Below are positions 27,487 to 51,332 of a stretch of DNA of 64,000 nucleotides, piece by piece; the first letter of the stretch is position 1, and the number at the start of each line of letters is the position of its first letter. The DNA is from Candidatus Amesbacteria bacterium GW2011_GWB1_47_19. Lineage in GTDB: Bacteria; Patescibacteriota; Microgenomatia; CAZETR01; Amesbacteraceae. The notes beneath the pieces are model-generated. The model ran no database searches. It was given only the letters and a program-made list of their open reading frames with translations, and was not told the origin of the DNA. A program made the position numbers and the translations under genes. The DNA lies in NCBI GenBank assembly GCA_001002325.1, contig LCNZ01000003.1, positions 7,484 through 71,483 of the forward strand, given 5' to 3'.

Positions 27487-27660
27487 ATGGCAAAGAAAGG
27501 CGCCCGTCAGATCCTAGCTCTGGTCTGTTCCATCTGCAAAACCCAGAACTATATCTCCGAGAAGAACAAAATCAATGTTGAAACTAAACTCGAATTGAAA
27601 AAGTTCTGCCGCCGCTGCCGTAAATACACCCTCCACAAAGAAACCTCAAAGCTTAAATAG
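27487..27660 (+). CDS. rpmG: 50S ribosomal protein L33
   Basis: MAKKGARQILALVCSICKTQNYISEKNK...KLELKKFCRRCRKYTLHKE is a C4-type bL33. Start chosen at the internal ATG of the listed ORF. Confidence 0.85.
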   Translation: MAKKGARQILALVCSICKTQNYISEKNKINVETKLELKKFCRRCRKYTLHKETSKLK

Positions 27661-27697
27661 TATCCCTGTTACCCTTCTTGCGTTAAAATCTCCTCAT

Positions 27698-27769
27698 AGG
27701 GCTGTGATGTCAACGGTAGCATGGCGGTCTCCAAAACCGCTCGTCCAGGTTCGAATCCTGGCAGCCCTG
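27698..27769 (+). tRNA. tRNA-Trp (anticodon CCA)
   Basis: Acceptor AGGGCTG/CAGCCCT, anticodon stem GCGGT/ACCGC with loop CTCCAAA, T-arm CCAGG TTCGAAT CCTGG. Sits in the classical position between rpmG and secE. Confidence 0.85.
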
Positions 27770-27796
27770 CAAAATAACCCATAGTTTGACTATCTT

Positions 27797-28102
27797 TTGT
27801 TCCTTTGGTACAATACTTCACAAATGGCACAGACACAACAAGAATCCTCAGTAGCAACTATCCGTGATGAAGCGTTAGGTCACGCCGATGTACTAAAAAC
27901 CTTACTTTCTATTGCCAAGCACGCAGATACCCCTGTTATTTGTTTGGCTTGTATCAAGTCAAATGCTACCGGAAATGCATGTACCGTTGGTCAAGATATG
28001 CACGGTGAAGTTAGTCGTAAATGGAAGTGGGAATCAGAATATAATTCTCCCTTAATTGATATTTGCCCAGAATTTGTCTCAAACATTGTTGCCAAAAAGT
28101 AA
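27797..28102 (+). CDS. hypothetical protein
   Basis: 101 aa ORF, first gene after tRNA-Trp. No motif recognised. Confidence 0.3.
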   Translation: MFLWYNTSQMAQTQQESSVATIRDEALGHADVLKTLLSIAKHADTPVICLACIKSNATGNACTVGQDMHGEVSRKWKWESEYNSPLIDICPEFVSNIVAKK

Positions 28103-28106
28103 TACT

Positions 28107-28388
28107 ATGCCATCAGAAAACAAAGCCCGCCAAAGACACCACGATTATTATGTTGCCCAACTACGTAAAGGTAAACTGCTGGTAGAAGAACTTCCAAATC
28201 TCCAATTAGCCATGAAAAGGGAAAAAGCGGGTGAAGTAAACCCTCTTTCTGGTGGAAGATTAGATTCGGTGAGGCTATTTTTTGCAACAATGTCCTATAA
28301 TCTGACGAAACTTGTATATGGTCCAAAAAAACTTCATCCCAAACATCAAAACACTGAAACTCATGAGGACGACAATTCCACCAAATAA
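28107..28388 (+). CDS. hypothetical protein
   Basis: 93 aa from the internal ATG (MPSENKARQRHHDYY...) directly after the preceding stop. Confidence 0.25.
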   Translation: MPSENKARQRHHDYYVAQLRKGKLLVEELPNLQLAMKREKAGEVNPLSGGRLDSVRLFFATMSYNLTKLVYGPKKLHPKHQNTETHEDDNSTK

Positions 28389-28581
28389 GCTGGTCCAAAC
28401 CTTGGTTTCAGAAATTTCCCAATCCCCTCCAAACCAAAGTCATACGAGTTCAAACTAAGCCAAATTTGGCGAAGTTTGGCCACTAAGCCCTGGAAAAATT
28501 CTCGGCCTCAGCTATTGGTATCAATCTACATAAAAACATTACAACCCCCAACAGGTATCGAACCTGTAATGTAAAATTAAC

Positions 28582-29184
28582 CTAATGCTTGGGGTACTCT
28601 TGCTTCCAAGCGTCTTGAGTAAGAACTCTAGTCTGAATACCACCGGCTTCTAACTTAGATTGAACATTGCCAACTTTGTGCTCGCTAGAAATCAAAACAG
28701 CTTCAATATATTCAGACTGTAAAGGAATAGATGGCAAATCCGGATATTCGCCTGTGCAATCATAACCCGGCAACTCCATAATTCCCGGTTTAAACACCCA
28801 AGTGGCCATACCTTCCCCCGTCAGGTTCGCCGCTCCCAAACCCCCTCTAACCAAATTACCCTGAGCATCATATCGGTCACGAGTCATCTGCACTACATCC
28901 GGTCTAGCCGTACCCCCAGTCTTTCGACCCAAAGCTTTCTGCATATCCGTCGAAAATAATGCTCTGTCTGTAATTACGCTATCTATTCTATCAACAGGCA
29001 TCTGATGATAATGGTTTAATGGCCCTTTTTCAGTCTCTTTTACTTTCTCCTTCGCAAAATCTCTAACCATTCCCAATGCTTCCTCAGGTTTCAAACCATG
29101 AGCCTTCGAAAACTGGTTCACATCCATGCGTCTTTCTAGCCTGACTCCGGCATGAGAAGACAACCTATTCCTCAAAGAGACCAA
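28582..29184 (-). CDS. hypothetical protein (cassette 1)
   Basis: 200 aa, no recognised motif. Followed on its upstream side by repeat R1. Confidence 0.35.
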   Translation of the reverse strand: MVSLRNRLSSHAGVRLERRMDVNQFSKAHGLKPEEALGMVRDFAKEKVKETEKGPLNHYHQMPVDRIDSVITDRALFSTDMQKALGRKTGGTARPDVVQMTRDRYDAQGNLVRGGLGAANLTGEGMATWVFKPGIMELPGYDCTGEYPDLPSIPLQSEYIEAVLISSEHKVGNVQSKLEAGGIQTRVLTQDAWKQEYPKH

Positions 29185-29350
29185 ATCCTGCTCTCGTTTA
29201 CCCCAACTTCGGCAGCTCTTTGAATTACAGCCTGAAGTCCTAACAATCCTGAAGTATCTACCTTCTGTTCCTTGACTACCCTTACTCCAACAAACTCGGC
29301 AGTTGTGTTGTCAGACATGTCCTAATTCTACACCGATAACCCGATACTAA

Positions 29351-29398
29351 GCTAAATTTGAGCGTACCAGGTTCGAATACTTTCCATCCAAGGCTGCT
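29351..29398 (+). repeat. tRNA-Trp-3'-end-like cassette boundary repeat R1 (short form)
   Basis: GCTAAATTTGAGCGTACCAGGTTCGAATACTTTCCATCCAAGGCTGCTAAAA. Shares CCAGGTTCGAAT with the tRNA-Trp T-arm and ...GCTGC(A/T)AAA with the tRNA 3' end/flank. Confidence 0.6.
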
Positions 29399-29474
29399 AA
29401 AAAATTCCGAAGCTAGTTTTTGTATCAAACTATATCAACGGACAAATGGAATCGAACCCAGGTACTTAAACTCT

Positions 29475-29990
29475 CTACTTATTATCATTCAACATTTTAT
29501 TGTAAAACTTATACTTGGCTTCTTGATAATCCCGATAACTTCTACCATTAAACCTCCACTTCAATTCCTCATATTCTTTCAATAATTTATTGTCTGATCT
29601 TAAAATATCAAAAACTTTAATCTGCCTATTAGGAGGTTCAGTTAGGTAAATTTCAATATCATATCCTTCTTGTTTAAACTTCCATTCTACAAATCGCTTT
29701 TTTACATAATCCCCCTGTTTATTTATTTCACCAAATAACTTCTCCATATCTGGTAAATAATCAGCAAAATCGTTTGCGTCAGCTAAAACATAAATATCAA
29801 CATCCTTCTGCCCGGATATACCTAGAGCCGCTGACCCCATAAATTTAATTACAGCATTTGGAAAACTATTTCTTATTTTCAAAACGATCTCATCACCAAG
29901 CTTTTTTCCAATCGGATCAAACGGAAATACATTTGCCTTCCGCAAGGGATCAATCTTTTTTAGATAATTCCTTTCTTCCCTAGTTAACAC
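29475..29990 (-). CDS. GrpB/minimal nucleotidyltransferase family protein (cassette 2)
   Basis: IKFMGSAALGISGQKDVDIYVL matches the GrpB/Lnu-type NTase motif hIGSTaVpGlaaKpiIDI. Confidence 0.5.
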   Translation of the reverse strand: MLTREERNYLKKIDPLRKANVFPFDPIGKKLGDEIVLKIRNSFPNAVIKFMGSAALGISGQKDVDIYVLADANDFADYLPDMEKLFGEINKQGDYVKKRFVEWKFKQEGYDIEIYLTEPPNRQIKVFDILRSDNKLLKEYEELKWRFNGRSYRDYQEAKYKFYNKMLNDNK

Positions 29991-30010
29991 GCGTTAATTA
30001 TATCAATGAC

Positions 30011-30050
30011 GAGCATAAAAGGTTCGAATGTCTTCCATCCAGAGCTGCAA
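30011..30050 (+). repeat. cassette boundary repeat R2 (short form)
   Basis: GAGCATAAAAGGTTCGAATGTCTTCCATCCAGAGCTGCAAAA. Confidence 0.6.
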
Positions 30051-30083
30051 AATTTATAATTCCGACCGTGGTATACTAAATCC

Positions 30084-30467
30084 ATGAAAGAAGAAGCTAA
30101 AACCTGGCTCGAGCAAGCTGAAGACAGCCTCAAAGACGCCGAGTTTCTCTACTCCGGCTCCAGATACTCAATGGCCGTCTATTGTTGCCACCAAGCCTTG
30201 GAAAAACTGCTCAAAGGTTGCATTATTCAGTTTGCCAACCAGCTTCCCCCCAAATCCCACAATCTGGACGCTCTGGCCCGTCTAACCACACTAAAGTTTC
30301 CTGAAATCTGGTTGGAAGACCTAGCCGAAATCACCCGCCACTTCTGGCGGGTTCGCTACCCCGACTTCCAAAGATTTGTCTATACCTCAAAAGAATCTAT
30401 TGAGCCTACTTACTCCAAGACCCGGGAGGTATTTATATGGATCAGACAGCAATTACCCAAAACCTAA
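30084..30467 (+). CDS. HEPN domain protein (putative toxin of a HEPN/MNT pair)
   Basis: AEDSLKDAEFLYSGSRYSMAVYCCHQALEKLLKGCII...SHNLDALARL fits the HEPN (PF05168-type) helical pattern. Overlaps the following MNT gene by 31 nt. Confidence 0.55.
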   Translation: MKEEAKTWLEQAEDSLKDAEFLYSGSRYSMAVYCCHQALEKLLKGCIIQFANQLPPKSHNLDALARLTTLKFPEIWLEDLAEITRHFWRVRYPDFQRFVYTSKESIEPTYSKTREVFIWIRQQLPKT

Positions 30468-30760
30468 AGGACTATCTTGTCAGACTCAGTAAATTCGTCT
30501 CTATAGACGAAGCTTATTTGTTCGGTTCATCCTCGACAGGAACGGCCAAAGAAGACAGTGATATAGATTTGTTGATTTTATCTCGGGATTTTTCCAAATA
30601 CGATCCCGACACTCGTCTGAAAATCATTTATCGAGCCAGCAGCGGATTCCCCTACGACTTACACGCTTACGGTGTGACCCCGGAAGAATACGCTTCAGCC
30701 TCACCCCTTACCACCCTCGGAGCCATTAGATCCACCAACCCTCCAGCCATTCAAATTTGA
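30437..30760 (+). CDS. minimal nucleotidyltransferase (MNT, putative antitoxin)
   Basis: Classic polymerase-beta NTase motif LFGSSSTGTAKEDSDIDLLIL. Confidence 0.7.
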   Translation: MDQTAITQNLKDYLVRLSKFVSIDEAYLFGSSSTGTAKEDSDIDLLILSRDFSKYDPDTRLKIIYRASSGFPYDLHAYGVTPEEYASASPLTTLGAIRSTNPPAIQI

Positions 30761-30843
30761 GCGTAATAGGTTCGTTCTGTATCGCAGATACAGGAGTGGT
30801 GAGCTAATCGAACCATGCACATGTCTTCCATCCAAGGCTGCAA
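30751..30843 (+). repeat. cassette boundary repeat R3 (long form with internal hairpins)
   Basis: Starts at the MNT stop codon: AAATTTGAGCGTAATAGGTTCG[ttCTGTATCgcaGATACAGgagtggtgagctaatCGAACC]ATGCACATGTCTTCCATCCAAGGCTGCAAAC. Confidence 0.6.
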
Positions 30844-30852
30844 ACAAAAACG

Positions 30853-31086
30853 CTAATCCGGAAAATTTAGGCGGGAAGCACAAGTTGCATCCGTTTTATA
30901 TATAAGGAAATTCCAAAAGGGCTTGTAACACGAAGGTTCTTCTGCACATTTACCGGTAATTCTATTTCTCTCTGCAGGCTGAATACCCATACAAACTCCA
31001 AACAACATATTAAGTACATGGGTTACACCCCACAGCAGCAAAACTACTATTCCAATCCATATCCACCTGGATAAGGGTTTATTCAT
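30853..31086 (-). CDS. small membrane protein, hypothetical
   Basis: 77 aa with two TM helices. Confidence 0.3.
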   Translation of the reverse strand: MNKPLSRWIWIGIVVLLLWGVTHVLNMLFGVCMGIQPAERNRITGKCAEEPSCYKPFWNFLIYKTDATCASRLNFPD

Positions 31087-31335
31087 TAAGATATTTATAT
31101 ACTCATAACTATATTCATATCAAATCTGTTTAAATCCGCCCAGGTGTTCCTCATTTCGTTCACAGGCTTCTGCAAAATAAAAAGTTCGGGACTTATACCC
31201 GGATTTTTTGTTTACAAAGGAAGAATCGTCCGAGCACGCCCCTCACGACTTCCGAAAGCGGAAGCGAAGCTGAGCATTGAGAAACAACAAAGTGCGGTAA
31301 GAAATAGCTTTTGTTGTGCCTTTTCTATAACTACC

Positions 31336-32256
31336 CTACTCCCAACGCCCAGTATCTTTAGGGTCAAATTTTCCATCCTTATCATAAGATTTTCGTGAAA
31401 TTAATCTGTCACACTCCTGTTCTAATGGGCAATCATTATGTCTTTTTTTATTACAACCCTGATTTCCTACATTCCATAACACTTCTGATACTCGTCTAGT
31501 GTCCCAACCGTTTTCATAAGTAACTTGTCCAAGCACCTTGTTTACAGCAGTAGTCACCTGGTGTACGTTTTCCGGCTGCTTGAGCGTCACCCCTCCCGTC
31601 TGAACCAGTACTCTGGCTACCTGAAAATCTACTGGTAATCCTCCTCCATTTGTACCTTGAAATTCATATAGACCATATTGGTTCATCCATTGAACAACCA
31701 ATGCTGACAGCTTTGGACCATATCTGGTAAACACCCCTTTCTTCCGTTTCTCTTCAGTTTTCGCTCTCGGCCGTACCGTCAATGCCTGAACCACTCTTTC
31801 CGCGTCACCACCAAGTTCATCCAGAAAATTCCTAATGTCACTCCCGTATCTTTCACCTAATATCCGAATATTATATGACCACTCTTGGACTACTCTTCTA
31901 TTATATCCTGCCGGTCGGAAAAAACTGGCACAACCAGCCATTATTTTTCCATCATCCCACACTAAAGCCTCACTTGGATTGAATATCCATGAATATTCAG
32001 CTAACCTGTTGGGATCAGTAATCCTGCTAAATAATTTTCCAGTATCGTCACCAAACACAAAAGCGGTCGTTAGGAATACTGCATTTGGTGCAAATTCTGA
32101 TTTACCAGTTTTTCTGCCATAGTCTTTAGCTAACTCAATAAACAACTCTTCTGGCCGAAACACTCCTTCAGAAAAAAATCCCTGTTGTTGTTCCAATGCA
32201 CCCAGAACTTTATTAACAATTAATACTGTTCTTTCTGCATTAATTTCTACGCCCAT
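31336..32256 (-). CDS. hypothetical protein, possibly HhH-fold glycosylase-like
   Basis: 306 aa. The segment GVFTRYGPKLSALVVQWM resembles a helix-hairpin-helix element. Assignment is weak. Confidence 0.25.
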   Translation of the reverse strand: MGVEINAERTVLIVNKVLGALEQQQGFFSEGVFRPEELFIELAKDYGRKTGKSEFAPNAVFLTTAFVFGDDTGKLFSRITDPNRLAEYSWIFNPSEALVWDDGKIMAGCASFFRPAGYNRRVVQEWSYNIRILGERYGSDIRNFLDELGGDAERVVQALTVRPRAKTEEKRKKGVFTRYGPKLSALVVQWMNQYGLYEFQGTNGGGLPVDFQVARVLVQTGGVTLKQPENVHQVTTAVNKVLGQVTYENGWDTRRVSEVLWNVGNQGCNKKRHNDCPLEQECDRLISRKSYDKDGKFDPKDTGRWE

Positions 32257-32300
32257 CTTCCGCGTATTGTACCATCGTTCGTAATTTCTAATCCTATAAA

Positions 32301-32365
32301 GCTAACAGGTTCCAACATAGTGCTTCGACCAGGTTCACCATCCCAGACCCACCTGCCCCTGCAAA
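32301..32365 (+). repeat. cassette boundary repeat R5 (divergent form)
   Basis: GCTAACAGGTTCCAACATAGTGCTTCGACCAGGTTCACCATCCCAGACCCACCTGCCCCTGCAAAA. Shares the end CCCTGCAAAA with the tRNA-Trp 3' end plus flank. Confidence 0.5.
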
Positions 32366-32393
32366 ACAGCCTCGAAAATGATATGATTAACAT

Positions 32394-32660
32394 ATGATTA
32401 ACTGGTCCACTGACGAAATAAAATTTAAAAAAAGCCACCCAAAAGAATATCGTCTTTGGCGACTCACCCAACTAATTAACTACGGCCTGGATGGTGAAAA
32501 GTTAGATAGACACGAGGTTAAACAAGCGTGGACGAAAATTAAAGCCGATTTAGATCCCCACAAAGCAGTATACTTAGAGTATCTTTTATGGGACGTAACA
32601 CCATCCTCACCCCAATTCAACGAAAATTTCTGGAGCTTGTCCAAGCAGAAAAATATTTAA
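32394..32660 (+). CDS. small protein upstream of AbiEii, possible AbiEi-like antitoxin
   Basis: 88 aa, overlaps the downstream NTase toxin gene by 73 nt. Called by position only. Confidence 0.3.
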   Translation: MINWSTDEIKFKKSHPKEYRLWRLTQLINYGLDGEKLDRHEVKQAWTKIKADLDPHKAVYLEYLLWDVTPSSPQFNENFWSLSKQKNI

Positions 32661-33265
32661 CTTCAAAATATTATTGGACGGGCGGGACTGTCCTATCTGA
32701 ATTCTATTTACACCACCGTGACTCCGAGGATATAGATTTATTCACAGAAGCAGATGAAGTTAATTTGCCGAGTGTGAAGGATTTTGTTGGCATTGTAGGT
32801 GCCAAACTAGGAGCCAAGGGCATCAGCTATACCCGATTTTTAGGACTCCACACTTTCGTCCTCACTTTTAATGAGAATAACCAACTAAAAATCGATTTCA
32901 ATTATTATCCTTTTCTTCGTATAAATACCAGTAAAAAATGGAACAATATCAACATCGACAGTATTGAGGATATAGCTGTAAATAAAGTTCATACTATCTC
33001 AGTCAAACCAAGATCCCGTGATTTTATTGATTTGTATTTCTTACTTAAGGACAAAAAATGGGGATTGTCTCTCCCCAAACTGATTGGTCTTGCCAAAGCC
33101 AAGTTTGATTGGGACATAAACCCTATCCAAATGGGTGAAAATTTGGCGAAAGTTGTAACAGTTAAAGATTTACCCCGAATATTGGTGCCATTTGATCAAA
33201 AAGAAATGGAAAATTTCTTGCTAAAAATGGCCAAATCCCTAGATAGCAGTATCTTCAAGAATTAA
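32588..33265 (+). CDS. nucleotidyltransferase AbiEii/AbiGii toxin family protein (DUF1814)
   Basis: YYWTGGTVLSEFYLHHRDSEDIDLF matches the AbiEii signature (GGTALs..Y..hR.SeDlDlf). Confidence 0.65.
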   Translation: MGRNTILTPIQRKFLELVQAEKYLTSKYYWTGGTVLSEFYLHHRDSEDIDLFTEADEVNLPSVKDFVGIVGAKLGAKGISYTRFLGLHTFVLTFNENNQLKIDFNYYPFLRINTSKKWNNINIDSIEDIAVNKVHTISVKPRSRDFIDLYFLLKDKKWGLSLPKLIGLAKAKFDWDINPIQMGENLAKVVTVKDLPRILVPFDQKEMENFLLKMAKSLDSSIFKN

Positions 33266-33353
33266 TTTGTGCGTACCAGGTTCGTTCTGATATCGAAGTG
33301 GTGCGAAGATATCAGGAGGTGAAACCGCACATGTCTTCCATCCAGGGCTGCAT
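33262..33353 (+). repeat. cassette boundary repeat R4 (long form with internal hairpins)
   Basis: Starts at the AbiEii stop: AATTTGTGCGTACCAGGTTCG[ttCTGATATCGaagtggtgCGAAGATATCAGgaggtgaaaCCGCAC]ATGTCTTCCATCCAGGGCTGCATAAA. Confidence 0.6.
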
Positions 33354-33374
33354 AAATTTCCAATCGTATCACCG

Positions 33375-33545
33375 ATGTTAGGTCGGGACATTATTGACGA
33401 AACTGTTTTTTTAGGCGAAATTGCAGGGCAAGTAGACCTTCGCATAGAACCCCACCCGATGATCCCGGAAGACTTTACCGAAAAATACAATCCCCTGGCC
33501 GATGAAGTTAAATCCAACGGCACGCCGCTGAATCTCCCCCGCTAA
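33375..33545 (+). CDS. 56 aa ORF / gene remnant inside a mini-cassette
   Basis: MLGRDIIDETVFLGEIAGQVDLRIEPHPMIPEDFTEKYNPLADEVKSNGTPLNLPR. Protein-like composition, lies between R4 and R6. Confidence 0.2.
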   Translation: MLGRDIIDETVFLGEIAGQVDLRIEPHPMIPEDFTEKYNPLADEVKSNGTPLNLPR

Positions 33546-33615
33546 GTTAGAATCAGGTTCCAACATAATGGTTCGACTTCGCTCACCATCTGCAATGCAC
33601 CAGCCTCTACTGCAT
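33541..33615 (+). repeat. cassette boundary repeat R6 (divergent form)
   Basis: GCTAAGTTAGAATCAGGTTCCAACATAATGGTTCGACTTCGCTCACCATCTGCAATGCACCAGCCTC. Contains an inverted GGTTC...GGTTCGAC pair. Confidence 0.5.
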
Positions 33616-34009
33616 TAAATCTAAATCCTGGTCGAAATTATACTTCCGGAGAGCAACAAATCCTCAGCATTTCCTTCAAACTTAACATATTTCTCATCCC
33701 TTTAAATCAAGCGCAATTGACTGCCAAATTTGCAGTCTGTTCATATATTCAGTAATTTTCTTACTATATCCTCAAACTTCTTTCTAATCCCCGGATCTAA
33801 TATATCCGAGCTGGCATTTGTACCAGGCTTGTTATTGACAATGGAATCATACCCGCCTCCCCACAAATCCTCTTTAACGCACCCTTGCTCAATCAGCAGT
33901 TGCTCCTCATCTACATGCATTTTGGCCCCTCCCAAAATTAGCTTTACCGGTAAATTACTGTAATCCTTCTCACAGACATGAACGCCAGTCCGAATTACAC
34001 TCTGGTTTC

Positions 34010-34399
34010 ATGGCAGACAATCCCCACCACGAGCATCTCGTCAAAGAGCTGACGGATCAGCTGGAACCGGTATTTTCCCGTTCCCCCCAGGCGGTTTATC
34101 TCTACCTTGATGACGAACACAAAATCTGTAACAAAAAATTCGCCGACCTGCTCGGATACCTCTCCCCGCAGGAATGGGTAGACAACCCGAATCCCGTAAG
34201 CGACGTCATTGCGAAAGACCGGGATAAAGTTATAGATGCTTATGTCAAAGCTTCAGACCAATTGAAAGCTTCGACTCTGGTGGTCTCTATGACTACCAAA
34301 AAAGGGCAAAAAATTGCTGTCAAGGTTATTATGACCCCGGTTACCTACCGGGGTGAGGTTTTCGTCCTTCATTTCATCACGAAAGGAGGTGACGCTTAA
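34010..34399 (+). CDS. hypothetical protein
   Basis: 129 aa with no recognised motif. Confidence 0.3.
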   Translation: MADNPHHEHLVKELTDQLEPVFSRSPQAVYLYLDDEHKICNKKFADLLGYLSPQEWVDNPNPVSDVIAKDRDKVIDAYVKASDQLKASTLVVSMTTKKGQKIAVKVIMTPVTYRGEVFVLHFITKGGDA

Positions 34400-34400
34400 A

Positions 34401-34598
34401 ATGACTCAAAAACAATGGGACACCCATCGCCAGCACGTGGATGACCACATTACCTGGCCGGCCACCAAACAGGAAATTGTGGACGCCTGCCAGGGAATGG
34501 ATGTGGAACCGGCAGTCCTGAAAGACTTAAAAACCATGATCCCTGATGGTCCTAAAAAATATACCAAATCAGAGCTGCACGATCAGGTTGTATCCTGA
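34401..34598 (+). CDS. DUF2795-like small protein
   Basis: MTQKQWDTHRQHVDDHITWPATKQEIVDACQGMDVEPAVLKDLKTMIPDG... fits the DUF2795 pattern (...YPAsKqdLid.A...ga...v...L..LP). Confidence 0.45.
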   Translation: MTQKQWDTHRQHVDDHITWPATKQEIVDACQGMDVEPAVLKDLKTMIPDGPKKYTKSELHDQVVS

Positions 34599-43716: not shown

Positions 43717-43718
43717 AT

Positions 43719-44336
43719 ATGGACGAAGAGCAGACATCCGTCACTGAGCGTGGTCTGGGATCAAAAGTTATTCCCGGCCACATTATCGTAAATGACAAAA
43801 AAGAACTGGCGGCCAACGCTCACTGGTATGTGGTCCACACATATTCCGGCCATGAAGCCCGGGTGGCCGAAACTCTGCGTCAGCGTGTGGCTACTTTAGG
43901 CCAGACCGACAAAGTTTTTGAGCTGTTGATTCCCACCCAGGACAAAATCCACATCAAACATGGCAAGAAATCCTCAGTCAGGGAAAAAATCTTTCCCGGA
44001 TACCTGCTGGTAAAAATGGTCGTTGACGACGATTCCTGGCTGGTGGTCCGCACCACTCAGGGGATCACCGGTTTCGTGGGTGTAGGTAATAAGCCTACCC
44101 CTCTTTCGGATACCGAGGTCACCGCCATCATGCAATTCGCCCAAATGGGAGCTCCCAAATACAAAGCTAATTTTAGCCTGGGAGAAGCAGTCAAGATTAC
44201 CGACGGTCCTTTTGCCGATTTCCTGGGGTCTATCGAAAGTATCGACGAATCTGCCGGTAAACTCCGGGTGCTCGTCTCGATCTTCGGCCGCGAAACCCCC
44301 GTCGAACTCGACTTTTTACAGGTAAAGAAGATATAA
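43719..44336 (+). CDS. nusG: transcription termination/antitermination protein NusG
   Basis: NGN domain (WYVVHTYSGHE, FPGYLLVKM) and KOW motif (GEAVKITDGPFADFLGSI). Confidence 0.9.
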   Translation: MDEEQTSVTERGLGSKVIPGHIIVNDKKELAANAHWYVVHTYSGHEARVAETLRQRVATLGQTDKVFELLIPTQDKIHIKHGKKSSVREKIFPGYLLVKMVVDDDSWLVVRTTQGITGFVGVGNKPTPLSDTEVTAIMQFAQMGAPKYKANFSLGEAVKITDGPFADFLGSIESIDESAGKLRVLVSIFGRETPVELDFLQVKKI

Positions 44337-44417
44337 TTCACCAAATTCTAAGCTTATATTATTTCAAATTTAGATATTATTTGATTATTAGAATTTAGTA
44401 TTTAGTATTTTTAAGGT

Positions 44418-44843
44418 ATGGCTCCCAAAAAAATCAAAACCACTCTTAAACTCAATCTCCCCGCCGGGGAGGCTTCTCCCGCCCCGCCGGTCGGTCCGGC
44501 ACTCGGTCAGCACGGTCTGCCCATCATGGATTTTGTCAAACAGTACAACGACAAAACCAAAGACCAAAAAGGCAACATCATCCCGGCTGTTATCACTGTT
44601 TACGAAGATCGCTCCTTCACCTTCGTTACCAAACTGCCCCCCGTGTCAGCCATGATCAAAAAAATCCTGAGCCTGCAAAAGGCCTCACAAAAACCCGGCC
44701 GTGAAACGGCCGGTACCCTGACTGCCGGCCAGGTGAAAGATATCGCCGAAAAGAAGCTGGAGGATCTGAACACCGAATCCCTGGAAGCCGCCATAAATAC
44801 AGTTACGGGTACCGCCCGCTCAATGGGCATCAAGGTCTCTTAA
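44418..44843 (+). CDS. rplK: 50S ribosomal protein L11
   Basis: APKKIKTTLKLNLPAGEASPAPPVGPALGQHGLPIMDFVKQYN is the canonical uL11 N-terminus. Confidence 0.9.
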   Translation: MAPKKIKTTLKLNLPAGEASPAPPVGPALGQHGLPIMDFVKQYNDKTKDQKGNIIPAVITVYEDRSFTFVTKLPPVSAMIKKILSLQKASQKPGRETAGTLTAGQVKDIAEKKLEDLNTESLEAAINTVTGTARSMGIKVS

Positions 44844-44995: not shown

Positions 44996-45352
44996 CTAAA
45001 AGTATACATTCTGGAAATGTTTTATCAGCAATGCCTGTTCTTCATGATTTAATATCACCGCCACCATGTCTATCCTGCACGGTACCTCTTTACCTCCCAA
45101 ATACACCTGGGCCATCCGTTTTACCCGTTCATATTTTTTCCGGGTAAACATTTCCTCCGGCTGGCCGAAAAGCAGTCCTTTTTTGGTCTTAACCTCTACA
45201 AATACCAACACATCTTTATCCCTACATATCAAGTCAATTTCTCCATATCGGGTAGAATAATTGCGCAAAACCATCTCAAATCCTTTCTTAACCAATAATT
45301 CCGCCGCCGCATCCTCTCCTAATCTTCCGATTTGCCTATTGAATCTTCTCAT
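44996..45352 (-). CDS. yraN: YraN family (UPF0102) putative endonuclease
   Basis: GRLGEDAAAELLVKKGFEMVLRNYSTRYGEIDLICRDKDVLVFVEVKTKK matches the UPF0102 signature. Confidence 0.8.
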   Translation of the reverse strand: MRRFNRQIGRLGEDAAAELLVKKGFEMVLRNYSTRYGEIDLICRDKDVLVFVEVKTKKGLLFGQPEEMFTRKKYERVKRMAQVYLGGKEVPCRIDMVAVILNHEEQALLIKHFQNVYF

Positions 45353-45369
45353 TTATTCCAGTATAGAAT

Positions 45370-45693
45370 ATGAATATGTCTAATGTAGGTTTTAACAAAA
45401 TTCAAGTCAAACAATTAAAGTCCCTTCTTAAAACTAACAATCCTAATTTAGAGACCTCAATAATTAAGCAGGTATCCTCCCATATCGCAGATGTTGTAGA
45501 CGCTCTCAGTCAGACTATCAGTGAAACCGAAACCAGGATCACCGAAAATTTTAGGCATGATACTAAGCACGAATCCAATAAACTTCGGGGGGATATTAAA
45601 AACCTCTCAACTACCATGGCTACTAAATACCAGGTCGATAACCACGAAAATCGTATTAAAGTGTTGGAAACAAAAGCATTCACTTCTGGTTAG
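45370..45693 (+). CDS. hypothetical coiled-coil protein
   Basis: 107 aa with heptad-like composition and no recognised motif. Confidence 0.25.
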   Translation: MNMSNVGFNKIQVKQLKSLLKTNNPNLETSIIKQVSSHIADVVDALSQTISETETRITENFRHDTKHESNKLRGDIKNLSTTMATKYQVDNHENRIKVLETKAFTSG

Positions 45694-47258
45694 CCCACCT
45701 GTCTGTACTGCAGCGCCTCCGCCATATGCACGGGCAAGATGTCTTTCTCTCCCGCCAGATCGGCAATCGTCCGCGCTACCTTTATCAGCTTAAAATATGC
45801 CCTGGCGGACAAATCCCATTTCTCCACCGCCAGCCGCAAAATCCTTTCCGACTCCCCTGTCAGCGGGCAATATTTTCTAACCTGTTTATTTTTCATCTGG
45901 GAGTTGGTAAAGATGCTTTCATCTCTAAATCTCAAATCCTGAATTTTCCTCGAATCAATTACTTTTTTCCTCACCTCTTTGGAGCTTGAACCTAGACCTG
46001 CCTTGCCGGCAGGCAAGCTTGGACTTGAACTCAACTTATCCGTCTCCACCGCCGGCACCTGAACATGCAAATCAATCCTGTCCAGAATCGGACCGGACAT
46101 CCTGGCCCGGTATTTCCTGATCTGTTTGTCGCTGCACCGGCATTCCCGCCGGGGATGTCCCAAATACCCGCACGGGCAGGGATTGACAGCTGCCACCAAA
46201 GTAAAACTGGCCGGATAAGACACATGCGCCGCCGCCCTGACTATCTGCACCTGACCGTCCTCCATGGGCTGCCTCAAGCCTTCCAGAACCGACCGGGGAA
46301 ATTCCGGCATTTCATCCAGAAACAGCACCCCCAGATGTGCCAAAGACACCTCTCCCGGTAATGGATTGCTTCCCCCGCCGATCATCCCCGCTGCCGATAC
46401 TCCATGATGCGGACTTCGAAATGGTCTTCTCCTCACTAACGACTCACCCGGTTCCAATAGTCCCGCGACCGAGTACACCCGTGTCACTTCCAGCGCTTCA
46501 GCTGAATTTAATGACGGCAAAATTCCCGGCATTGCCCTGGCCAACATGGTCTTTCCCGTCCCCGGCGGACCCCACATCAACAAGTTGTGTCCTCCGGCTG
46601 CGGCTATGGATAGAGCGCGTTTTGCCTGTTCCTGCCCGGCAACCTCCGCCAGATCATACTCCACTCCCCCTTCTTCAACCAGCTCCTTGACTTCCACTTT
46701 ACCCAATTTCTTTATCTGCTTCACTTCATTCAGATGGTCCGTCAACTCTATTAAATTCCTCACCGGGTATACGGTTATTCCCTCCACCACCGCCGCCTCA
46801 TTCGCACTTTCAATCGGAACAAATATTTGAGTTTTGATTTTTGAATTTTGTGTTTGTTGGGCGAATAGCCCAACCAAAAGCACTCCCTTTGTTGCCCGCA
46901 AACTTCCATCCAGACTTAATTCACCATAAAATATGGTGTTTTTAAAATTGAAAAATGGTAATTGAAAATTTAGCTGTCCCGAGGCAGCGAGTATCCCCAC
47001 CGCCATCGGCAAATCGTATGCTCCCCCGTCCTTGGGTAAATCCGCCGGCGCTAGGTTTACGGTAATTTTCTTGGATGGAAAATCCATCCCCGAATTATTA
47101 ATCGCCGTCTTCACCCGCTCCCGGGCCTCCTCTACCGCCTTACCCGCCAGCCCGACTATGGTAAATCCCGGAAATCCGGCTTCCGCCACATCCACCTCCA
47201 CCTCCACCGGCATCGTCACCAACCCCACATTCGCCACACTCCTAACTTTTACCAGCAC
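45690..47258 (-). CDS. comM: Mg-chelatase-like AAA+ ATPase YifB/ComM
   Basis: N-terminal Lon-like domain. Walker A GPPGTGKT and Walker B VLFLDE. C-terminal Mg_chelatase_C region. Confidence 0.85.
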   Translation of the reverse strand: MLVKVRSVANVGLVTMPVEVEVDVAEAGFPGFTIVGLAGKAVEEARERVKTAINNSGMDFPSKKITVNLAPADLPKDGGAYDLPMAVGILAASGQLNFQLPFFNFKNTIFYGELSLDGSLRATKGVLLVGLFAQQTQNSKIKTQIFVPIESANEAAVVEGITVYPVRNLIELTDHLNEVKQIKKLGKVEVKELVEEGGVEYDLAEVAGQEQAKRALSIAAAGGHNLLMWGPPGTGKTMLARAMPGILPSLNSAEALEVTRVYSVAGLLEPGESLVRRRPFRSPHHGVSAAGMIGGGSNPLPGEVSLAHLGVLFLDEMPEFPRSVLEGLRQPMEDGQVQIVRAAAHVSYPASFTLVAAVNPCPCGYLGHPRRECRCSDKQIRKYRARMSGPILDRIDLHVQVPAVETDKLSSSPSLPAGKAGLGSSSKEVRKKVIDSRKIQDLRFRDESIFTNSQMKNKQVRKYCPLTGESERILRLAVEKWDLSARAYFKLIKVARTIADLAGEKDILPVHMAEALQYRQVG

Positions 47259-47324
47259 TTTCTCTGTTTTAGAACAATTAGATCGGTCAGGTCAATCGTC
47301 TGATCCTTTACGGTACATCCGGCA

Positions 47325-48158
47325 TTACCCACCGATAAAATACTTCCCGTCTTTTTCTTTAATTTCCCCGGAAAGCGTCATCACTGACAGTTGCGCCCCC
47401 ATTTCATTTACCGAGCGCATCAATTTTCTAGCCAGTTCATCTACCGTCAACGTCTCATTCTCTAACAATCTGTAAATATCTGCATTCTTATCATCGCTTT
47501 TAGCATCATTAGTAGTTCGTTGACTCACCTGTTGCTCCGGCAACCACATCTGTGCCTTTTTCTCGGCAATTAACCGGTTTGTACCGTCAGATACTCTGCT
47601 TGTCACCGGTCCCGGCACCGCCCAGACTCTTTTCCCCAGCTTTATCGCCCATTCCACAGTTATCATGCTCCCGCTTTTAACCGCAGCTTCTACCACATAT
47701 ACTTCGTCCGCCAGAGCAGCCATAATCCTGTCCCGCTGCGGAAAAGTCCATAAAGTACCTGCCTGATCTTCCCATTCCGAAACAACCAACCCCCCTTTCT
47801 CAATAATTTCATTCATAATACTTAAATCTTCGGCCGTGATTCCTTTATAGTCGATTCCCCAGCCCAGCACAGCCACTGTCCTTCCCCCGCTGGCCATGCA
47901 CGCCCGGTGAGCCGCCTGATCCACCCCGTACATCATTCCCGATATCACTGTCGCTCCCCCGTTTACCAGTTGCGGCACAATTTTGTCAACCACTCTCCTC
48001 CCGTACTCCGTTATCCTCCGGCTTCCCACAACCGCTGCCGCGTGATCAAACCAGCTTTCATCCCAGCCGTCTTTTCCCCGCCAAAACAGCTTTTTAACCG
48101 CCGGTTTAACTGCTGAAAAATTCGGTATTTTCGTTGCATCTACCACCCCCTGCTTCAT
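47325..48158 (-). CDS. dprA: DNA-processing protein DprA (Smf)
   Basis: Rossmann-like core AAVVGSRRITEYGRRV...VISGMMYGVDQAAHRACMASGGRTVAVLGWGID typical of DprA. Confidence 0.8.
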   Translation of the reverse strand: MKQGVVDATKIPNFSAVKPAVKKLFWRGKDGWDESWFDHAAAVVGSRRITEYGRRVVDKIVPQLVNGGATVISGMMYGVDQAAHRACMASGGRTVAVLGWGIDYKGITAEDLSIMNEIIEKGGLVVSEWEDQAGTLWTFPQRDRIMAALADEVYVVEAAVKSGSMITVEWAIKLGKRVWAVPGPVTSRVSDGTNRLIAEKKAQMWLPEQQVSQRTTNDAKSDDKNADIYRLLENETLTVDELARKLMRSVNEMGAQLSVMTLSGEIKEKDGKYFIGG

Positions 48159-48183: not shown

Positions 48184-49047
48184 TTGTATAATCTTGAGGT
48201 CGATATGGGCAAAAAACGCATCACCGTTATCGGTTCATCGCAGGAGCAGGAAATCAAATCCAGGCGGGCTATCCAGCTGGAGCAGAAAAAAATCCGCGAA
48301 GGCAAAAAAAGCGTAAAAGCCCCGGGTCTCGCCGGGGGCCAGCGAGTGGTAGACACCACAGCTGAATCTTTGGCGGAATACGAAATAATAGAAGCCAAAA
48401 GACAGGCTGCCGAAGCCCTGGTTTCCACCAAAGCCGCTCCGGCTCCCAAAAAAGCCCGTACCAGGTCTGCTACCTACGCTAAAGCCAAGTCTTTGGTTGA
48501 TCCTCTCAAATCTTATCCCCTATCGGATGCACTCAAGCTCCTGCGGACTGTTTCCTTGACCAAATTTGACGGCACGGTTGAACTTCACCTCACCACCAAA
48601 ACCAAAAACCAGTCTCATACGGTGGAACTTCCATTTTCTCCCGGAAAAACCAGAAAAATCGGCATCGTGGATGAAAAATTCATTTCCAATCTCGATTCGG
48701 GAAACATAGACCTGAACTTCGACTTGCTTCTTGTTTCTCCTGACTTGATGCCCAAACTGGTGAAATTCGCCAAAATCCTGGGTCCCAAAGGTCTGATGCC
48801 CAACCCCAAAACCGGCACCATCGTAGCCGACCCTGCAGCTGCTGCCAAAAAACTGGCCGGGGGTAACTCCCTGCAGCTCAAAAGCGAAAAAGACGCCCCG
48901 GTCATCCACACTTTCGTCGGCAAACTCTCCCAAAAGGACCCGGAATTGGAAGCCAACATTTCCGCCGTTCTGTCCGTACTCCCCGTCACCAAAGCCGTCC
49001 TCAAGAGTACGATGTCCCCCGTTATAAAACTGCAAATGAACGCTTGA
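48184..49047 (+). CDS. rplA: 50S ribosomal protein L1 with ~90 aa Lys-rich N-terminal extension
   Basis: The C-terminal ~190 aa align to uL1 (PLSDALKLL..., ILGPKGLMPNPKTGT). The N-terminal ~95 aa have no counterpart in canonical L1, and no internal start codon precedes the L1 core. Confidence 0.8.
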   Translation: MYNLEVDMGKKRITVIGSSQEQEIKSRRAIQLEQKKIREGKKSVKAPGLAGGQRVVDTTAESLAEYEIIEAKRQAAEALVSTKAAPAPKKARTRSATYAKAKSLVDPLKSYPLSDALKLLRTVSLTKFDGTVELHLTTKTKNQSHTVELPFSPGKTRKIGIVDEKFISNLDSGNIDLNFDLLLVSPDLMPKLVKFAKILGPKGLMPNPKTGTIVADPAAAAKKLAGGNSLQLKSEKDAPVIHTFVGKLSQKDPELEANISAVLSVLPVTKAVLKSTMSPVIKLQMNA

Positions 49048-49083
49048 CTTAATACTGCAACTTCTATAGGATGAATTCCCAGA

Positions 49084-50346
49084 ATGGGCAGACACGAAGC
49101 TCCTCTGGACGGACAACATCCAGGCTCTCTCTCCAACACCCATCAGCCTGAATCTTATCAACCCATCCTCTGTGCTGATTCAATTTTTTTCAAAGTCGCC
49201 CCCGAGGTTGAGCGGATTGCAGACCATCTTCCGGGTTTAATCACCTCCCAAACCAAGGATGTTGTTTCACGAAATCCTCCCGAACTGGCTCATCTGTCCG
49301 GACGGGAATCAACTCCTACATTAATATTAAAATCGACCTTGAACCTACCGGATTGGCCTGTAAAAGTCCCGTCGCCGGTCATATTCGCCTGCGGATCCGC
49401 CGAAAGTGCCGCTGTCACCATCGGGAGATACCACTTTGATTCTGACAATATCCTGACCTTCCAGCCCGCCCGGTTACATACGGGTCCGGATGCCCAAAGA
49501 GACCTCGCTGCAAGTATGTGGCAGGCGTGGCAGCACCCGGAGATTATATCCAGACTTGCTGGTGATGACCAAACATTTATCATCTATCTCACCAGGGAAG
49601 GCCATATACCCCAGGTCCAGGTTCCCCTGTGGGATCATTACTCCAGGATTGACCCCTATACCATTGCTCATGTCGAGCATGCACCCTACGACAATCCGTT
49701 TGGCAGAGTTACAAAAATTTGTCCAATTAATTATGAAGGGCTCACACCTGCAGTAACCGATTTGATTGCCGGCGATTCCATTGCCTCCGGAGAACAGGCT
49801 GTTGCAGTGTTCGAGCTGTTCCTCAGTCGCATGAAACAGCTGTGCGGGCCGGACTATCATTTACGCCATTTGGTCCTGGTCTCACCGCTCCTCACCGCAT
49901 ACGGAGCGGCTGTTGTAGGTTTAAGTGCAGCCCGATCCGGAATCCAGACAACGTTTGTCACCTCCGAAACTATACTGGGCTGCTTACCCCCGGACAGATA
50001 CTATTCACCGGTTCTGGCCCAACCACATCTCCATGCCTCCCCGGAATTTATTCCCCTTCTCCGTGCTGCTCTGGGTACCGGCTTTGAAAAAATCTGCGTC
50101 AGGGGTAACTGGACAGCTTCGTTTGCAGCTGTTTCCCATGCCCTGACGAAATCCAACGAAGAATTGGCACCATTGGGGCTGTCAAATTCTTTTCTGGAAC
50201 GCCAATGCGTAAATTTAACTCCCCGGTCTGTATGGGAACGGTACCGCATTCCTCCGGAGCGGCTTCTGCCCTACTCAACCTGGTACGAAGCCTACCGCAC
50301 CGACAGGCTTGACCAGCTAAAACAACTCCTCACTATTGCCAATTGA
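49084..50346 (+). CDS. hypothetical protein inserted between rplA and rplJ
   Basis: 420 aa, Ala/Leu/Pro-rich, no recognised motif (weak PRTase-like VTDLIAGDSIASG). Confidence 0.35.
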   Translation: MGRHEAPLDGQHPGSLSNTHQPESYQPILCADSIFFKVAPEVERIADHLPGLITSQTKDVVSRNPPELAHLSGRESTPTLILKSTLNLPDWPVKVPSPVIFACGSAESAAVTIGRYHFDSDNILTFQPARLHTGPDAQRDLAASMWQAWQHPEIISRLAGDDQTFIIYLTREGHIPQVQVPLWDHYSRIDPYTIAHVEHAPYDNPFGRVTKICPINYEGLTPAVTDLIAGDSIASGEQAVAVFELFLSRMKQLCGPDYHLRHLVLVSPLLTAYGAAVVGLSAARSGIQTTFVTSETILGCLPPDRYYSPVLAQPHLHASPEFIPLLRAALGTGFEKICVRGNWTASFAAVSHALTKSNEELAPLGLSNSFLERQCVNLTPRSVWERYRIPPERLLPYSTWYEAYRTDRLDQLKQLLTIAN

Positions 50347-50426
50347 CCAAAGTTTATTTACAATACCCAGGTTACCCGAAGACAGCTGGTTTTCGCGTAG
50401 GCGACATAAATCCCGCCGAGGAACAT

Positions 50427-50939
50427 ATGACACCCAAAAAGGTTAATCCCGCTAAAACTTCCGTTATCTCCCGGCTCTCGGACCTGATCAAATCCTCCAA
50501 ATCTGTGGCGATTGTAGATTACCAAGGCCTCAAAGTCTCCCAGGCCACGCAACTCCGCCAGGCAGTCAGACTTGCCGGCGGACAATTTGTAGTTGCCAAA
50601 AACACCCTTTTCAAAATCGCTTCCGGGATCAAAGATCTCGATCTGTCAGGTACTTCCGCCTTTGTTTTTTCCAAAACGGATGAAATCTCCGCCCTCAAAG
50701 CAGTGGCCGGTTTTGCCAAAAAGAATAATCTTCCCACTTTCAAACAGGGGCTGATGGGAGACAGAGTCTTGACCGCTGAAGAAATTAGCATTTTGGCCGC
50801 ACTTCCCGACCGGAATACTCAATACTCCCAACTTGTATCCCGCCTTAATTCTCCCATTTCCAAACTTGTTTACAGCCTCAACTGGAATATATCCAAATTA
50901 GTCCGTACTCTGGATGCTGTCAGGGAGGTGAAATCATAA
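50427..50939 (+). CDS. rplJ: 50S ribosomal protein L10
   Basis: SVAIVDYQGLKVSQATQLRQAVRLAGGQFVVAKNTL is the canonical uL10. Start placed at the ATG preceded by GAGGAA instead of the TTG of the listed ORF. Confidence 0.85.
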   Translation: MTPKKVNPAKTSVISRLSDLIKSSKSVAIVDYQGLKVSQATQLRQAVRLAGGQFVVAKNTLFKIASGIKDLDLSGTSAFVFSKTDEISALKAVAGFAKKNNLPTFKQGLMGDRVLTAEEISILAALPDRNTQYSQLVSRLNSPISKLVYSLNWNISKLVRTLDAVREVKS

Positions 50940-51332
50940 ATGTCTACCACAACCGACAAACTGATCAAACAAATTGAGGAATTATCCGTTTTGGAGTTGA
51001 CGGAACTGGTTAAAGCTCTCGAGGACAAATTCGGGGTCACCGCATCTGCCCCTGCTGTAGTTTCCGCTTCAGCGGGTAGTGGAACGGATACCGCTTCCGA
51101 TGAAGCTCCGGAAGAACAATCCAGTTTCACAGTCTTACTCAAGGACGGAGGTACAAACAAAATCGCCGTCATTAAAGCTCTTCGGGAATTAAATCCCAAC
51201 CTGGGACTTAAAGAAGCCAAAGATCTTTCGGAAAAACCGGGAGCTGTCATCGCCGAAAACGTCAACAAAGGTGCCGCTGAAGAAGCCAAAACCAAACTCA
51301 CAGTCGCCGGTGCCGCTGTCGAACTTAAATAA
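50940..51332 (+). CDS. rplL: 50S ribosomal protein L7/L12
   Basis: N-terminal dimerisation helix, Ala-rich hinge, and C-terminal KIAVIKALRELNPNLGLKEAKDL. Confidence 0.9.
   Translation: MSTTTDKLIKQIEELSVLELTELVKALEDKFGVTASAPAVVSASAGSGTDTASDEAPEEQSSFTVLLKDGGTNKIAVIKALRELNPNLGLKEAKDLSEKPGAVIAENVNKGAAEEAKTKLTVAGAAVELK

Follow-up and report, generated by a model that had tools for sequence, protein, structure and literature searches.

Organization of the rplKAJL locus

We analysed a stretch of 64,000 nucleotides (nt) of the genome of Candidatus Amesbacteria bacterium GW2011_GWB1_47_19 (contig LCNZ01000003.1, positions 7,484 to 71,483; in the following "the window"), a lineage of the candidate phyla radiation (CPR), which carries the gene cluster secE-nusG-rplK-rplA-rplJ-rplL. 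The genes rplKAJL serve in textbooks to illustrate a near-universal gene order and autogenous regulation by the ribosomal proteins L1 and L10. A first-pass annotation had recognized the order thrT-tyrT-thrT ... rpmG-tRNA-Trp-secE-nusG-rplKAJL and had interpreted three interruptions of it as insertions into a universally intact block. Searches with ARAGORN, Rfam and Pfam confirmed the order and the three interruptions; only one of them is recent and specific to this genome, whereas the other two are shared with relatives.

All genes of the cluster are on the plus strand. It begins with tRNA-Thr(tgt) (25172-25244), tRNA-Tyr(gta) (25270-25353) and tRNA-Thr(ggt) (25788-25860), a trio that is the usual head of the tuf/secE cluster, followed by rpmG, which encodes L33 (27487-27660; Pfam Ribosomal_L33, 2.5e-17), and tRNA-Trp(cca) (27698-27770); the four tRNA genes were found with both ARAGORN and Rfam. 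The genes for SecE (43486-43716), NusG (43719-44336), L11 (rplK, 44418-44843), L1 (rplA, 48205-49047), L10 (rplJ, 50428-50939) and L12 (rplL, 50940-51332) were identified with Pfam and follow in canonical order. SecE and nusG are contiguous, with a spacer of 2 nt, and form a unit with rplK (43486-44843); rplJ and rplL are contiguous as well. The start of rplJ was corrected: as listed, the gene began at a TTG that overlaps the stop codon of the preceding open reading frame (ORF), whereas the ATG at 50428 is preceded by the Shine-Dalgarno (SD) motif GAGGA and yields an L10 of 170 amino acids (aa), as in relatives.

The interruptions comprise 15,715 nt between tRNA-Trp and secE (break a), 3,361 nt between rplK and rplA with yraN, comM and dprA on the opposite strand (break b), and 1,380 nt between rplA and the corrected rplJ start, which contain an ORF of 420 aa (break c, ORF420). 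Two further departures from the usual order had been overlooked by the first-pass annotation. In the slot between tRNA-Thr and rpmG that is occupied by tuf in many bacteria, a PilB/T2SSE-type ATPase is encoded on the minus strand instead (25866-27080; Pfam T2SSE, 1.9e-104; 100% identity to a protein recorded for GW2011_GWB1_47_19), and rpoBC were not found after rplL, nor did any ORF within the 64-kb window exceed 700 aa, as rpoB and rpoC would.

The yraN-comM-dprA module between rplK and rplA

The module between rplK and rplA (44996-48158) lies on the minus strand, in convergent orientation to rplK and divergent orientation to rplA; the start codons of dprA and rplA are 46 bp apart. It encodes YraN/UPF0102 (44996-45352; Pfam UPF0102, 3.8e-25), the Mg-chelatase-like ComM (45690-47258; Pfam ChlI, Mg_chelatase and Mg_chelatase_C) and DprA (47325-48158; Pfam DNA_processg_A, 1.6e-50, and DprA_WH), each with its diagnostic domains, and its GC content of 48% equals that of the host. 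The first-pass annotation had rightly named these three genes; its additional "hypothetical" gene is a 337-bp AT-rich spacer between yraN and comM (45353-45689). The only sizeable ORF of the spacer (45370-45693, 107 aa) is on the plus strand; neither Pfam nor NCBIfam nor any of the loci compared contained a homologue. A promoter-like site for yraN is situated inside the spacer (45410-45382, minus strand).

The same block was found in a genome with an L1 identity of 58% (GCA_027331445.1, locus L170), in the order NusG-L11-[YraN, ComM, DprA](-)-L1-L10-L12. The module proteins of the two genomes are 59-78% identical, similar to the flanking ribosomal proteins. In the closest relative (L085, L1 identity 66%), dprA on the minus strand is directly upstream of rplA, at the edge of the contig. 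The divergent dprA/rplA spacers of the three genomes are 46, 88 and 133 bp long. The yraN and comM genes abut in L170, and its comM (6986-8982) was called as two pieces of 177 and 336 aa that are about 450-500 nt apart, possibly due to a pseudogene, an insertion or an assembly error; comM in the window is intact.

Other relatives have different arrangements. The canonical, unbroken SecE-NusG-L11-L1-L10-L12 order is present in L087/L088. In four genomes L1-L10-L12 occur and no L11 was found within the available 4.8-10 kb of upstream flank; here, rplA is preceded by genes that encode large surface proteins and, with about 145 aa, a conserved membrane protein (L086, L169, L174) or by Tat genes and a gene for a helix-turn-helix protein (L171). 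The proteins of 142-153 aa upstream of L1 in the former three genomes were considered as divergent L11 and rejected, as they form an unrelated, membrane-anchored family. Taken over eight Amesbacteria-level genomes, rplK and rplA are together in one, the module is present in three, and in four the rplA-rplJL genes lack a nearby rplK.

For a wider sample, genome and metagenome contigs were scanned with L1, and the matches listed rested on the generic motif LGP[KR]GLMPN / KGLMPNPK. None of the matches listed was more than 50% identical, and the close relatives were taken from protein-encoding contigs. Among the matches listed, the gene for L11 directly precedes that for L1 in 53 of 55 non-CPR genomes, with a median gap of 74 nt and no gap of at least 600 nt in these 53, whereas rplK and rplA are split in 7 of 22 other informative Patescibacteria genomes. 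Splitting of rplK from rplA is thus rare outside the Patescibacteria (2/55 genomes among these matches), and its repeated occurrence is the one fairly unusual feature of the locus. Because the module is shared with L170 and L085 and its identities match those of the flanking ribosomal proteins, break (b) is old within a sublineage; it is not phylum-wide.

A rare gene at the rplA-rplJ junction

The 420-aa ORF that the first-pass annotation had listed as unknown (49084-50346, plus strand) starts 36 nt after the rplA stop codon, with no terminator-like site between them, and has a GC content of 52%, equal to that of the host. No match was found in Pfam, NCBIfam or PADLOC, and a comparison of its profile with the sequences of the Protein Data Bank (PDB) yielded only noise (PUF4, E 0.1). 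A search of 1.84 billion cluster representatives yielded 47 homologous ones (E<=1e-3), with identities of about 40% or less except for an identical fragment from the same population. For two homologues the contigs were read, and their context is non-ribosomal; at the rplA-rplJ junction ORF420 occurs in this population only. ORF420 is a real gene, and its family is rare.

The structure was modelled with AlphaFold2. An alignment of three sequences gave an unusable model (predicted local distance difference test score, pLDDT, 46.8), and therefore an alignment of 33 sequences was used, which resulted in a pLDDT of 92.8 and a predicted template modelling (pTM) score of 0.91. A Foldseek search of the PDB with this model retrieved uracil phosphoribosyltransferase (UPRT; 1xtt, E 4e-5, template modelling score 0.54 on the target), PyrR, orotate phosphoribosyltransferase and hypoxanthine-guanine phosphoribosyltransferase, with matches spanning about 140-200 of the 420 residues. 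Judged from the model, the core of ORF420 has a type-I phosphoribosyltransferase-like fold. A canonical loop for binding of phosphoribosyl pyrophosphate was not found in ORF420; the family keeps only D231-x-x-A234-S-G, which partly resembles the UPRT loop.

The same junction carries other genes elsewhere, namely a 78-aa ORF and a Peptidase_S8 gene in L085 and a 143-aa ORF in L171, and none in the other relatives; in most Amesbacteria relatives the called rplA and rplJ genes are about 40-110 nt apart. Across the Patescibacteria sampled, L1-L10 gaps of 0.8-8 kb are common among the matches listed. The L11 and L10 operons are separate transcription units in E. coli. Since this operon boundary lies at the junction even there, break (c) splits no operon, and it is recent and genome-specific in content. 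Here, the view of the first-pass annotation that a gene was inserted holds.

The region between tRNA-Trp and secE

The region between tRNA-Trp and secE is composite. Its first part (27.8-34.6 kb) has a GC content of 41.7%, whereas the second part (34.6-43.5 kb) has 51%, as the host; elsewhere in the window the GC content is 48-51%. The low-GC part (27797-34600), delimited from composition, Pfam, PADLOC and repeats, begins 27 nt past tRNA-Trp and is genome-specific: tblastn gave no match to it in the loci of relatives. It encodes GrpB (29475-29990, minus strand), a HEPN protein (30084-30467) paired with an MNT nucleotidyltransferase (30437-30760), an AbiEii toxin (32588-33265) and several orphan ORFs. 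The segment shares with tRNA-linked islands the position next to a tRNA 3' end, the deviant GC content, the accessory cargo and the absence in relatives, and it lacks an integrase gene and a direct repeat of the tRNA 3' end. The sole trace of such a repeat is a 12-nt identity to the T-arm of tRNA-Trp (29362-29373).

An intergenic repeat family is confined to the low-GC segment (29355-29404, 30028-30055, 30754-30848 and 33264-33358) and marks the borders between the cassettes of GrpB, HEPN/MNT and AbiEii. Its two long copies, of about 95 nt, can form a hairpin with compensatory differences (CUGUAUC/GAUACAG versus CUGAUAUC/GAUAUCAG), and the 22-mer ATGTCTTCCATCCARGGCTGCA occurs three times versus 0 expected and is absent from 174 other loci. 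The repeats may be remnants of cassette boundaries or of integration. When they were considered as remnants of attC-like or tRNA attachment (att) sites, their folding was no better than that of shuffled sequences (z -0.8 to -1.4), and no integrase accompanies them; Rfam gave no match in the segment even at permissive thresholds.

The host-GC part (34601-43485) is partly conserved in relatives. It contains a 117-aa ORF (34641-34994), genes for a NAGPA-domain protein (35199-36383) and a NUDIX protein (37207-37701, minus strand), a 455-aa orphan (37763-39130), the genes for a Na/Ca exchanger (39133-40071), Ddl (40272-41342, minus strand), a DNRLRE-domain protein (41348-42199) and CofD/YvcK (42204-43226), and a 76-aa ORF (43239-43469); the domains were assigned with Pfam and NCBIfam. 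The first-pass annotation had the size of the region right; its description as accessory genes does not fit Ddl, CofD/YvcK and the Na/Ca exchanger, which occupy the same position upstream of SecE in L087, L088 and L173. L172 and L087 are one contig of 74.9 kb, on which the distance from L33 to SecE is about 13 kb; in L173 it is 8.9 kb. Both loci have the frame thrT-tyrT-thrT, PilB(-), L33, tRNA-Trp ... Ddl(-), hydrolase, CofD, a protein of about 350 aa, SecE, NusG. The genes beside rpmG/tRNA-Trp vary, with a glycosyltransferase, RsgA, a methyltransferase and an acetyltransferase in L172 and an ion channel in L173. In a more distant Patescibacteria genome (L011) 5.7 kb separate tRNA-Trp from SecE, and in four others (L013, L096, L109, L110) the tRNA/L33 block is inverted relative to SecE. 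In contrast, rpmG-tRNA-Trp-secE are contiguous in loci of Neomarinimicrobiota, Acidobacteriota, Elusimicrobiota, KSB1 and Victivallales (L025, L030, L061, L065, L072, L079). As relatives carry the rpmG...secE gap with the same Ddl...CofD...SecE frame, break (a) is an old inherited gap that behaves as a variable region, in which only the part next to tRNA-Trp looks like a recent acquisition.

In the synteny comparison that the first-pass annotation had proposed, with conservation throughout the phylum as the sign of ancestral breaks, a recent origin was nearly refuted for break (a) and refuted for break (b), and it stood for break (c).

Sequences upstream of rplJ and rplA

The region upstream of rplJ (50336-50427, plus strand) contains a promoter-like site, TTGCCA-17-TACAAT (50336-50364), and a conserved leader, AAGACAGC...AUAAAUCCCGCCGAGG (50379-50421), which were identified by a promoter scan and by alignments, respectively. 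All relatives have a TATAAT box and the leader upstream of rplJ; the box of the window reads TACAAT. The consensus of the leader is AAGACAGC-[variable hairpin]-AUAARUC(C/G)(C/G)GCCGAGG-ATG. The motif was found in ten genomes (L085-L087, L090, L096, L169-L171, L174 and the window) and occurs once in the window versus 0.01 expected. It is kept irrespective of whether L1, ORF420, the peptidase gene or a small ORF precedes it, and in L096 it precedes rplJ although this gene is 7 kb away from rplA.

A helix of 5 bp closes the leader, with its 3' strand abutting the SD motif. Of 50 cells of the alignment, 45 are paired; two of the pairs vary (GC/CG/UA/UG), five sequences have one mismatch each, and the RNAalifold energy was near zero; the pattern of pairing and variation is suggestive of a conserved helix and not decisive. 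The compact leader is a candidate for a clade-specific variant of the leader that binds L10(L12)n, and if so, a leader of this clade has escaped the coverage of Rfam.

Upstream of rplA, a conserved -10-like box (TATAAT, 48187-48192) is separated by 12 nt from the ATG. The box aligns in most of eight genomes (it is doubtful in L174) and is present in L087 although rplK adjoins rplA there. A CCUC...GAGG hairpin precedes rplA in some relatives only. Further promoter-like sites belong to the secE-nusG-rplK unit (43455-43483 and 44308-44337), and a putative promoter of ORF420 is situated at 49044-49072.

RNAs that bind L1 are located, depending on the phylum, in front of rplK or in front of rplA and are characterized by a stem of 6-12 bp with an internal bulge consisting of a G-A pair and an unpaired A (PMC3616713). 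With the start codons of dprA and rplA 46 bp apart and the -10 box 12 nt from the ATG, a structured leader of this kind on the rplA transcript of the window is unlikely. The rplK leader of the window is an 81-nt AT-rich spacer; in L087 the spacer between nusG and rplK is 5 nt long, which leaves no room for an L1-binding leader of rplK.

The first-pass annotation had concluded that the separation of the genes implies rewired regulation. The independence of rplA from rplK is in line with this; it looks, however, like a trait of the lineage. Because the rplA box is present even where rplK is adjacent, and the rplJ box and leader are kept whatever lies upstream, the sequences suggest that regulatory decoupling predates the insertions or is independent of them. 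We infer that the independence of rplA from rplK made the junction permissive to rearrangement and was not a consequence of this insertion.

Origin of the interruptions

Our favoured reading, to which we assign a probability of roughly 0.7, combines an inherited gap (a), an older rearrangement in a sublineage (b) and a recent insertion (c). It builds on the gene identities, the synteny in relatives and the conservation of the rplJ leader and the -10 boxes, from which we infer the number and direction of the events. An ancestral tRNA-(tuf)-rpmG-tRNA-Trp-secE-nusG-rplKAJL-rpoBC supercluster would have broken up in this Amesbacteria lineage into the units [tRNAs], [rpmG], [tRNA-Trp], [secE-nusG-rplK], [rplA] and [rplJ-rplL], with three interruptions of differing age. 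The inherited gap (a) would have turned into a variable region, the secE-proximal part of which (Na/Ca exchanger, Ddl, CofD) was conserved in the family, while the tRNA-Trp-proximal part was swapped between genomes and here carries a low-GC toxin-antitoxin islet. The older rearrangement (b) would have set yraN-comM-dprA head-to-head with rplA and would have been passed down in a sublineage, and sister genomes would have parted rplA from rplK in other ways, leading to an archaeal-like rplA-rplJ-rplL unit. A single origin of the module may be assumed, given that its architecture is identical and its divergence matches. Finally, the gene with the phosphoribosyltransferase-like fold would have been inserted recently, and in this genome only, at the boundary between an L11-type and an L10-type operon (c). 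As ORF420 would have landed upstream of the rplJ promoter and leader, the feedback of L10-L12 was probably left untouched, provided that the boxes act as promoters and the leader binds L10(L12)n.

Several results weigh against this reading. The Rfam model L10_leader did not match the rplJ leader at the gathering score or at E<=10, permissive thresholds revealed no ribosomal (L10 or L1) leader between 43 and 51.5 kb, and RNAalifold did not find a consensus structure upstream of rplA. The promoter calls are matches to the consensus only, and 18 such matches were found versus 9.0 +/- 3.2 expected. A neighbour-joining tree of L1, L10, L12, MreB and the PEGA-domain protein from eight genomes was star-like, with bootstrap values of 15-31% at the deep nodes, and therefore neither a single clade of module-bearing genomes nor a number of events for the module is claimed. 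The comparison comprised eight close relatives, several of them on short contigs; the absence of a nearby rplK refers to 4.8-10 kb; and the rplA-rplJ statistics for non-CPR genomes are soft, because tblastn with a CPR L10 query is insensitive in distant phyla. For break (a), none of the ORFs had an integrase or recombinase domain according to Pfam, NCBIfam and PADLOC, and a clear att repeat flanking the low-GC segment was not found, so that site-specific integration is unsupported.

The reading was weighed against three others. Three recent horizontal insertions into an intact, tightly regulated block of this genome would account for an ORF420 that is unique at its site and has homologues elsewhere, as well as for the deviant GC content and the toxin-antitoxin cargo beside a tRNA at 27.8-34.6 kb. 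However, the rpmG...secE gap exists already in relatives with L1 identities of only 51-66% and contains conserved genes there, the yraN-comM-dprA module has the same place and orientation in relatives, and the GC contents of the module and of ORF420 equal that of the host. For breaks (a) and (b) this explanation is largely refuted, and as an account of all three it is very unlikely. As the source is a metagenome assembly, the interruptions might also be chimeric joins that arose during assembly or binning. Yet two other assemblies made from the same Rifle groundwater data (L003, L004) contain the L1-ORF420-L10 junction base for base, breaks (a) and (b) recur in independent samples, and the GC skew is uniform over every junction. 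Artefactual junctions are unlikely, and chimerism as the cause of the whole arrangement is extremely improbable.

The arrangement could instead reflect selected coupling, in that the head-to-head orientation of dprA-comM-yraN and rplA co-controls DNA uptake/recombination and ribosome synthesis, and ORF420, a phosphoribosyltransferase-like protein whose gene would be carried on the rplA transcript, may act in nucleotide salvage. CPR bacteria are dependent on salvage and possess competence genes, the divergent dprA/rplA pair is kept in three genomes with short spacers, and ORF420 follows rplA closely on the same strand. Against this, the arrangement is absent in most relatives, no shared regulatory motif was identified, and the rplA-rplJ inserts are unrelated among genomes, which is better explained by neutral use of a hot spot. 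Selected coupling therefore appears unlikely. Similarly doubtful is a broader reading, in which Amesbacteria, and perhaps Microgenomatia more widely, converged on an archaeal-style organization with rplA, whose product L1 has a conserved N-terminal extension of 85 aa, freed from rplK and from L1 feedback at rplK, as a unit of its own ahead of rplJL. One sublineage would then have gained a bidirectional control region of 46-133 bp with dprA-comM-yraN, and the junctions would serve as insertion hot spots for salvage-type genes like ORF420. If true, DNA salvage and transformation would be tied to ribosome synthesis.

Comparison with known systems

In comparison with secE-nusG, rplKA and rplJL-rpoBC of E. 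coli and B. subtilis, the window has the same genes in the same order and on one strand, contiguous secE-nusG and contiguous rplJ-rplL with a conserved 5' leader before rplJ. It differs in that an opposite-strand module parts rplK and rplA by 3.4 kb, ORF420 lies between rplA and rplJ, rpoBC do not follow rplL, rpmG and tRNA-Trp are 15.7 kb upstream, and the Rfam L10_leader is unmatched. Because rplK and rplA are split by the module, translational coupling of L1 and L11 and repression by L1 at the rplK leader of the E. coli type cannot operate.

The L1 operon of the archaeon Methanococcus vannielii consists of rplA-rplJ-rplL, with rplK elsewhere (PMC3616713). Amesbacteria resemble it in that rplA is uncoupled from rplK and is situated just upstream of rplJ-rplL, and the four genomes without a nearby rplK (L086, L169, L171, L174) have exactly this order. 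In contrast to the archaeal operon, no recognizable L1-binding hairpin precedes rplA of Amesbacteria, the proteins are bacterial, and a separate promoter-like box and leader precede rplJ, so that rplA, rplJ and rplL need not share one transcript.

Separation of rplKA from rplJL, with genes inserted at the rplA-rplJ boundary, has been reported for Bradyrhizobium and Actinomyces (PMC12993453). In our sampled loci, the rplA-rplJ gaps were 1.3-2.3 kb in Streptomyces and related actinomycetes and 1.7 kb in Bradyrhizobium. However, rplK-rplA are intact in these organisms, and the inserted gene of the window encodes a rare, genome-specific protein with a predicted phosphoribosyltransferase-like fold. 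In Gammaproteobacteria, multigene insertions occur between concatenated translation operons (Brandis et al., PMC6735719, PMC8046335). The window likewise has a conserved operon cluster that is parted by lineage-specific multigene insertions at operon boundaries, but its rplK-rplA break disrupts genes that nearly all bacteria keep in one operon, and its taxon is a CPR lineage outside those studies.

The arrangement is thus a lineage-specific variant of the known fragmentation of conserved translation clusters and represents lineage-typical genome fluidity and no striking novelty. Nothing is overturned, as insertion-driven breakup of conserved operon clusters has been documented in other phyla. 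It does show a CPR lineage that took the rplK-rplA operon apart repeatedly while the leader stayed with rplJ, which bears on the control of ribosomal protein stoichiometry in ultra-small bacteria. It also matters when contiguous ribosomal protein blocks are used for binning and phylogeny of CPR genomes, because L11 and L1 may sit on different fragments. The compact rplJ leader, together with two of the observations described below, the L1 extension and the GC skew, may be worth more than the gene order itself.

Flanking genes and further observations

Downstream of rplL (51338-53814), the window contains mreB (51338-52342, minus strand), a gene for a PEGA-domain protein (52384-53610, plus strand), both identified with Pfam, and tRNA-Arg/tRNA-Pro. 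The mreB and PEGA genes are found downstream of rplL in 8/8 loci of relatives, with only a partial mreB in L085. In the Amesbacteria loci that extend far enough, NDK, an M16 peptidase, arginyl-tRNA synthetase and ATP synthase come next.

L1 has a lysine-rich N-terminal extension of about 85 aa (48205-48460 in the window) with the pattern MGKKRxxVLGSExE..LKAKxAVKLEQKKLREGK.AKAPGLxGGQRVVDTTAESLAE. It is conserved in more than 100 homologues from Amesbacteria/Microgenomates and was matched also in more distant Patescibacteria loci (L007, L009, L012, L089, L107). The extension had no match in Pfam or among the PDB sequences, nor did it turn up in a search of the literature.

The GC skew of the plus strand is very strong and uniform over the window (1-64000; -0.26 overall), so that the ribosomal protein genes are on the C-rich strand. 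It is independent of gene orientation, because the skew at third codon positions is negative in plus-strand (-0.31) and minus-strand genes (-0.41) alike. All loci of relatives, when oriented with rplA on the plus strand, have GC skews of -0.15 to -0.33. The leading strand is usually G-rich. If this applies here, secE-nusG-rplK, rplA and rplJL are on the lagging strand throughout the clade, which would be unusual for ribosomal protein genes.

Four loci titled "uncultured Gammaproteobacteria/Pseudomonadales bacterium" (L005, L008, L012, L015) encode a Patescibacteria-type L1 with 37-46% identity to the query, in L012 including the N-terminal extension, in a CPR-like SecE-NusG-L11-L1 context. The taxon labels of these loci look wrong.

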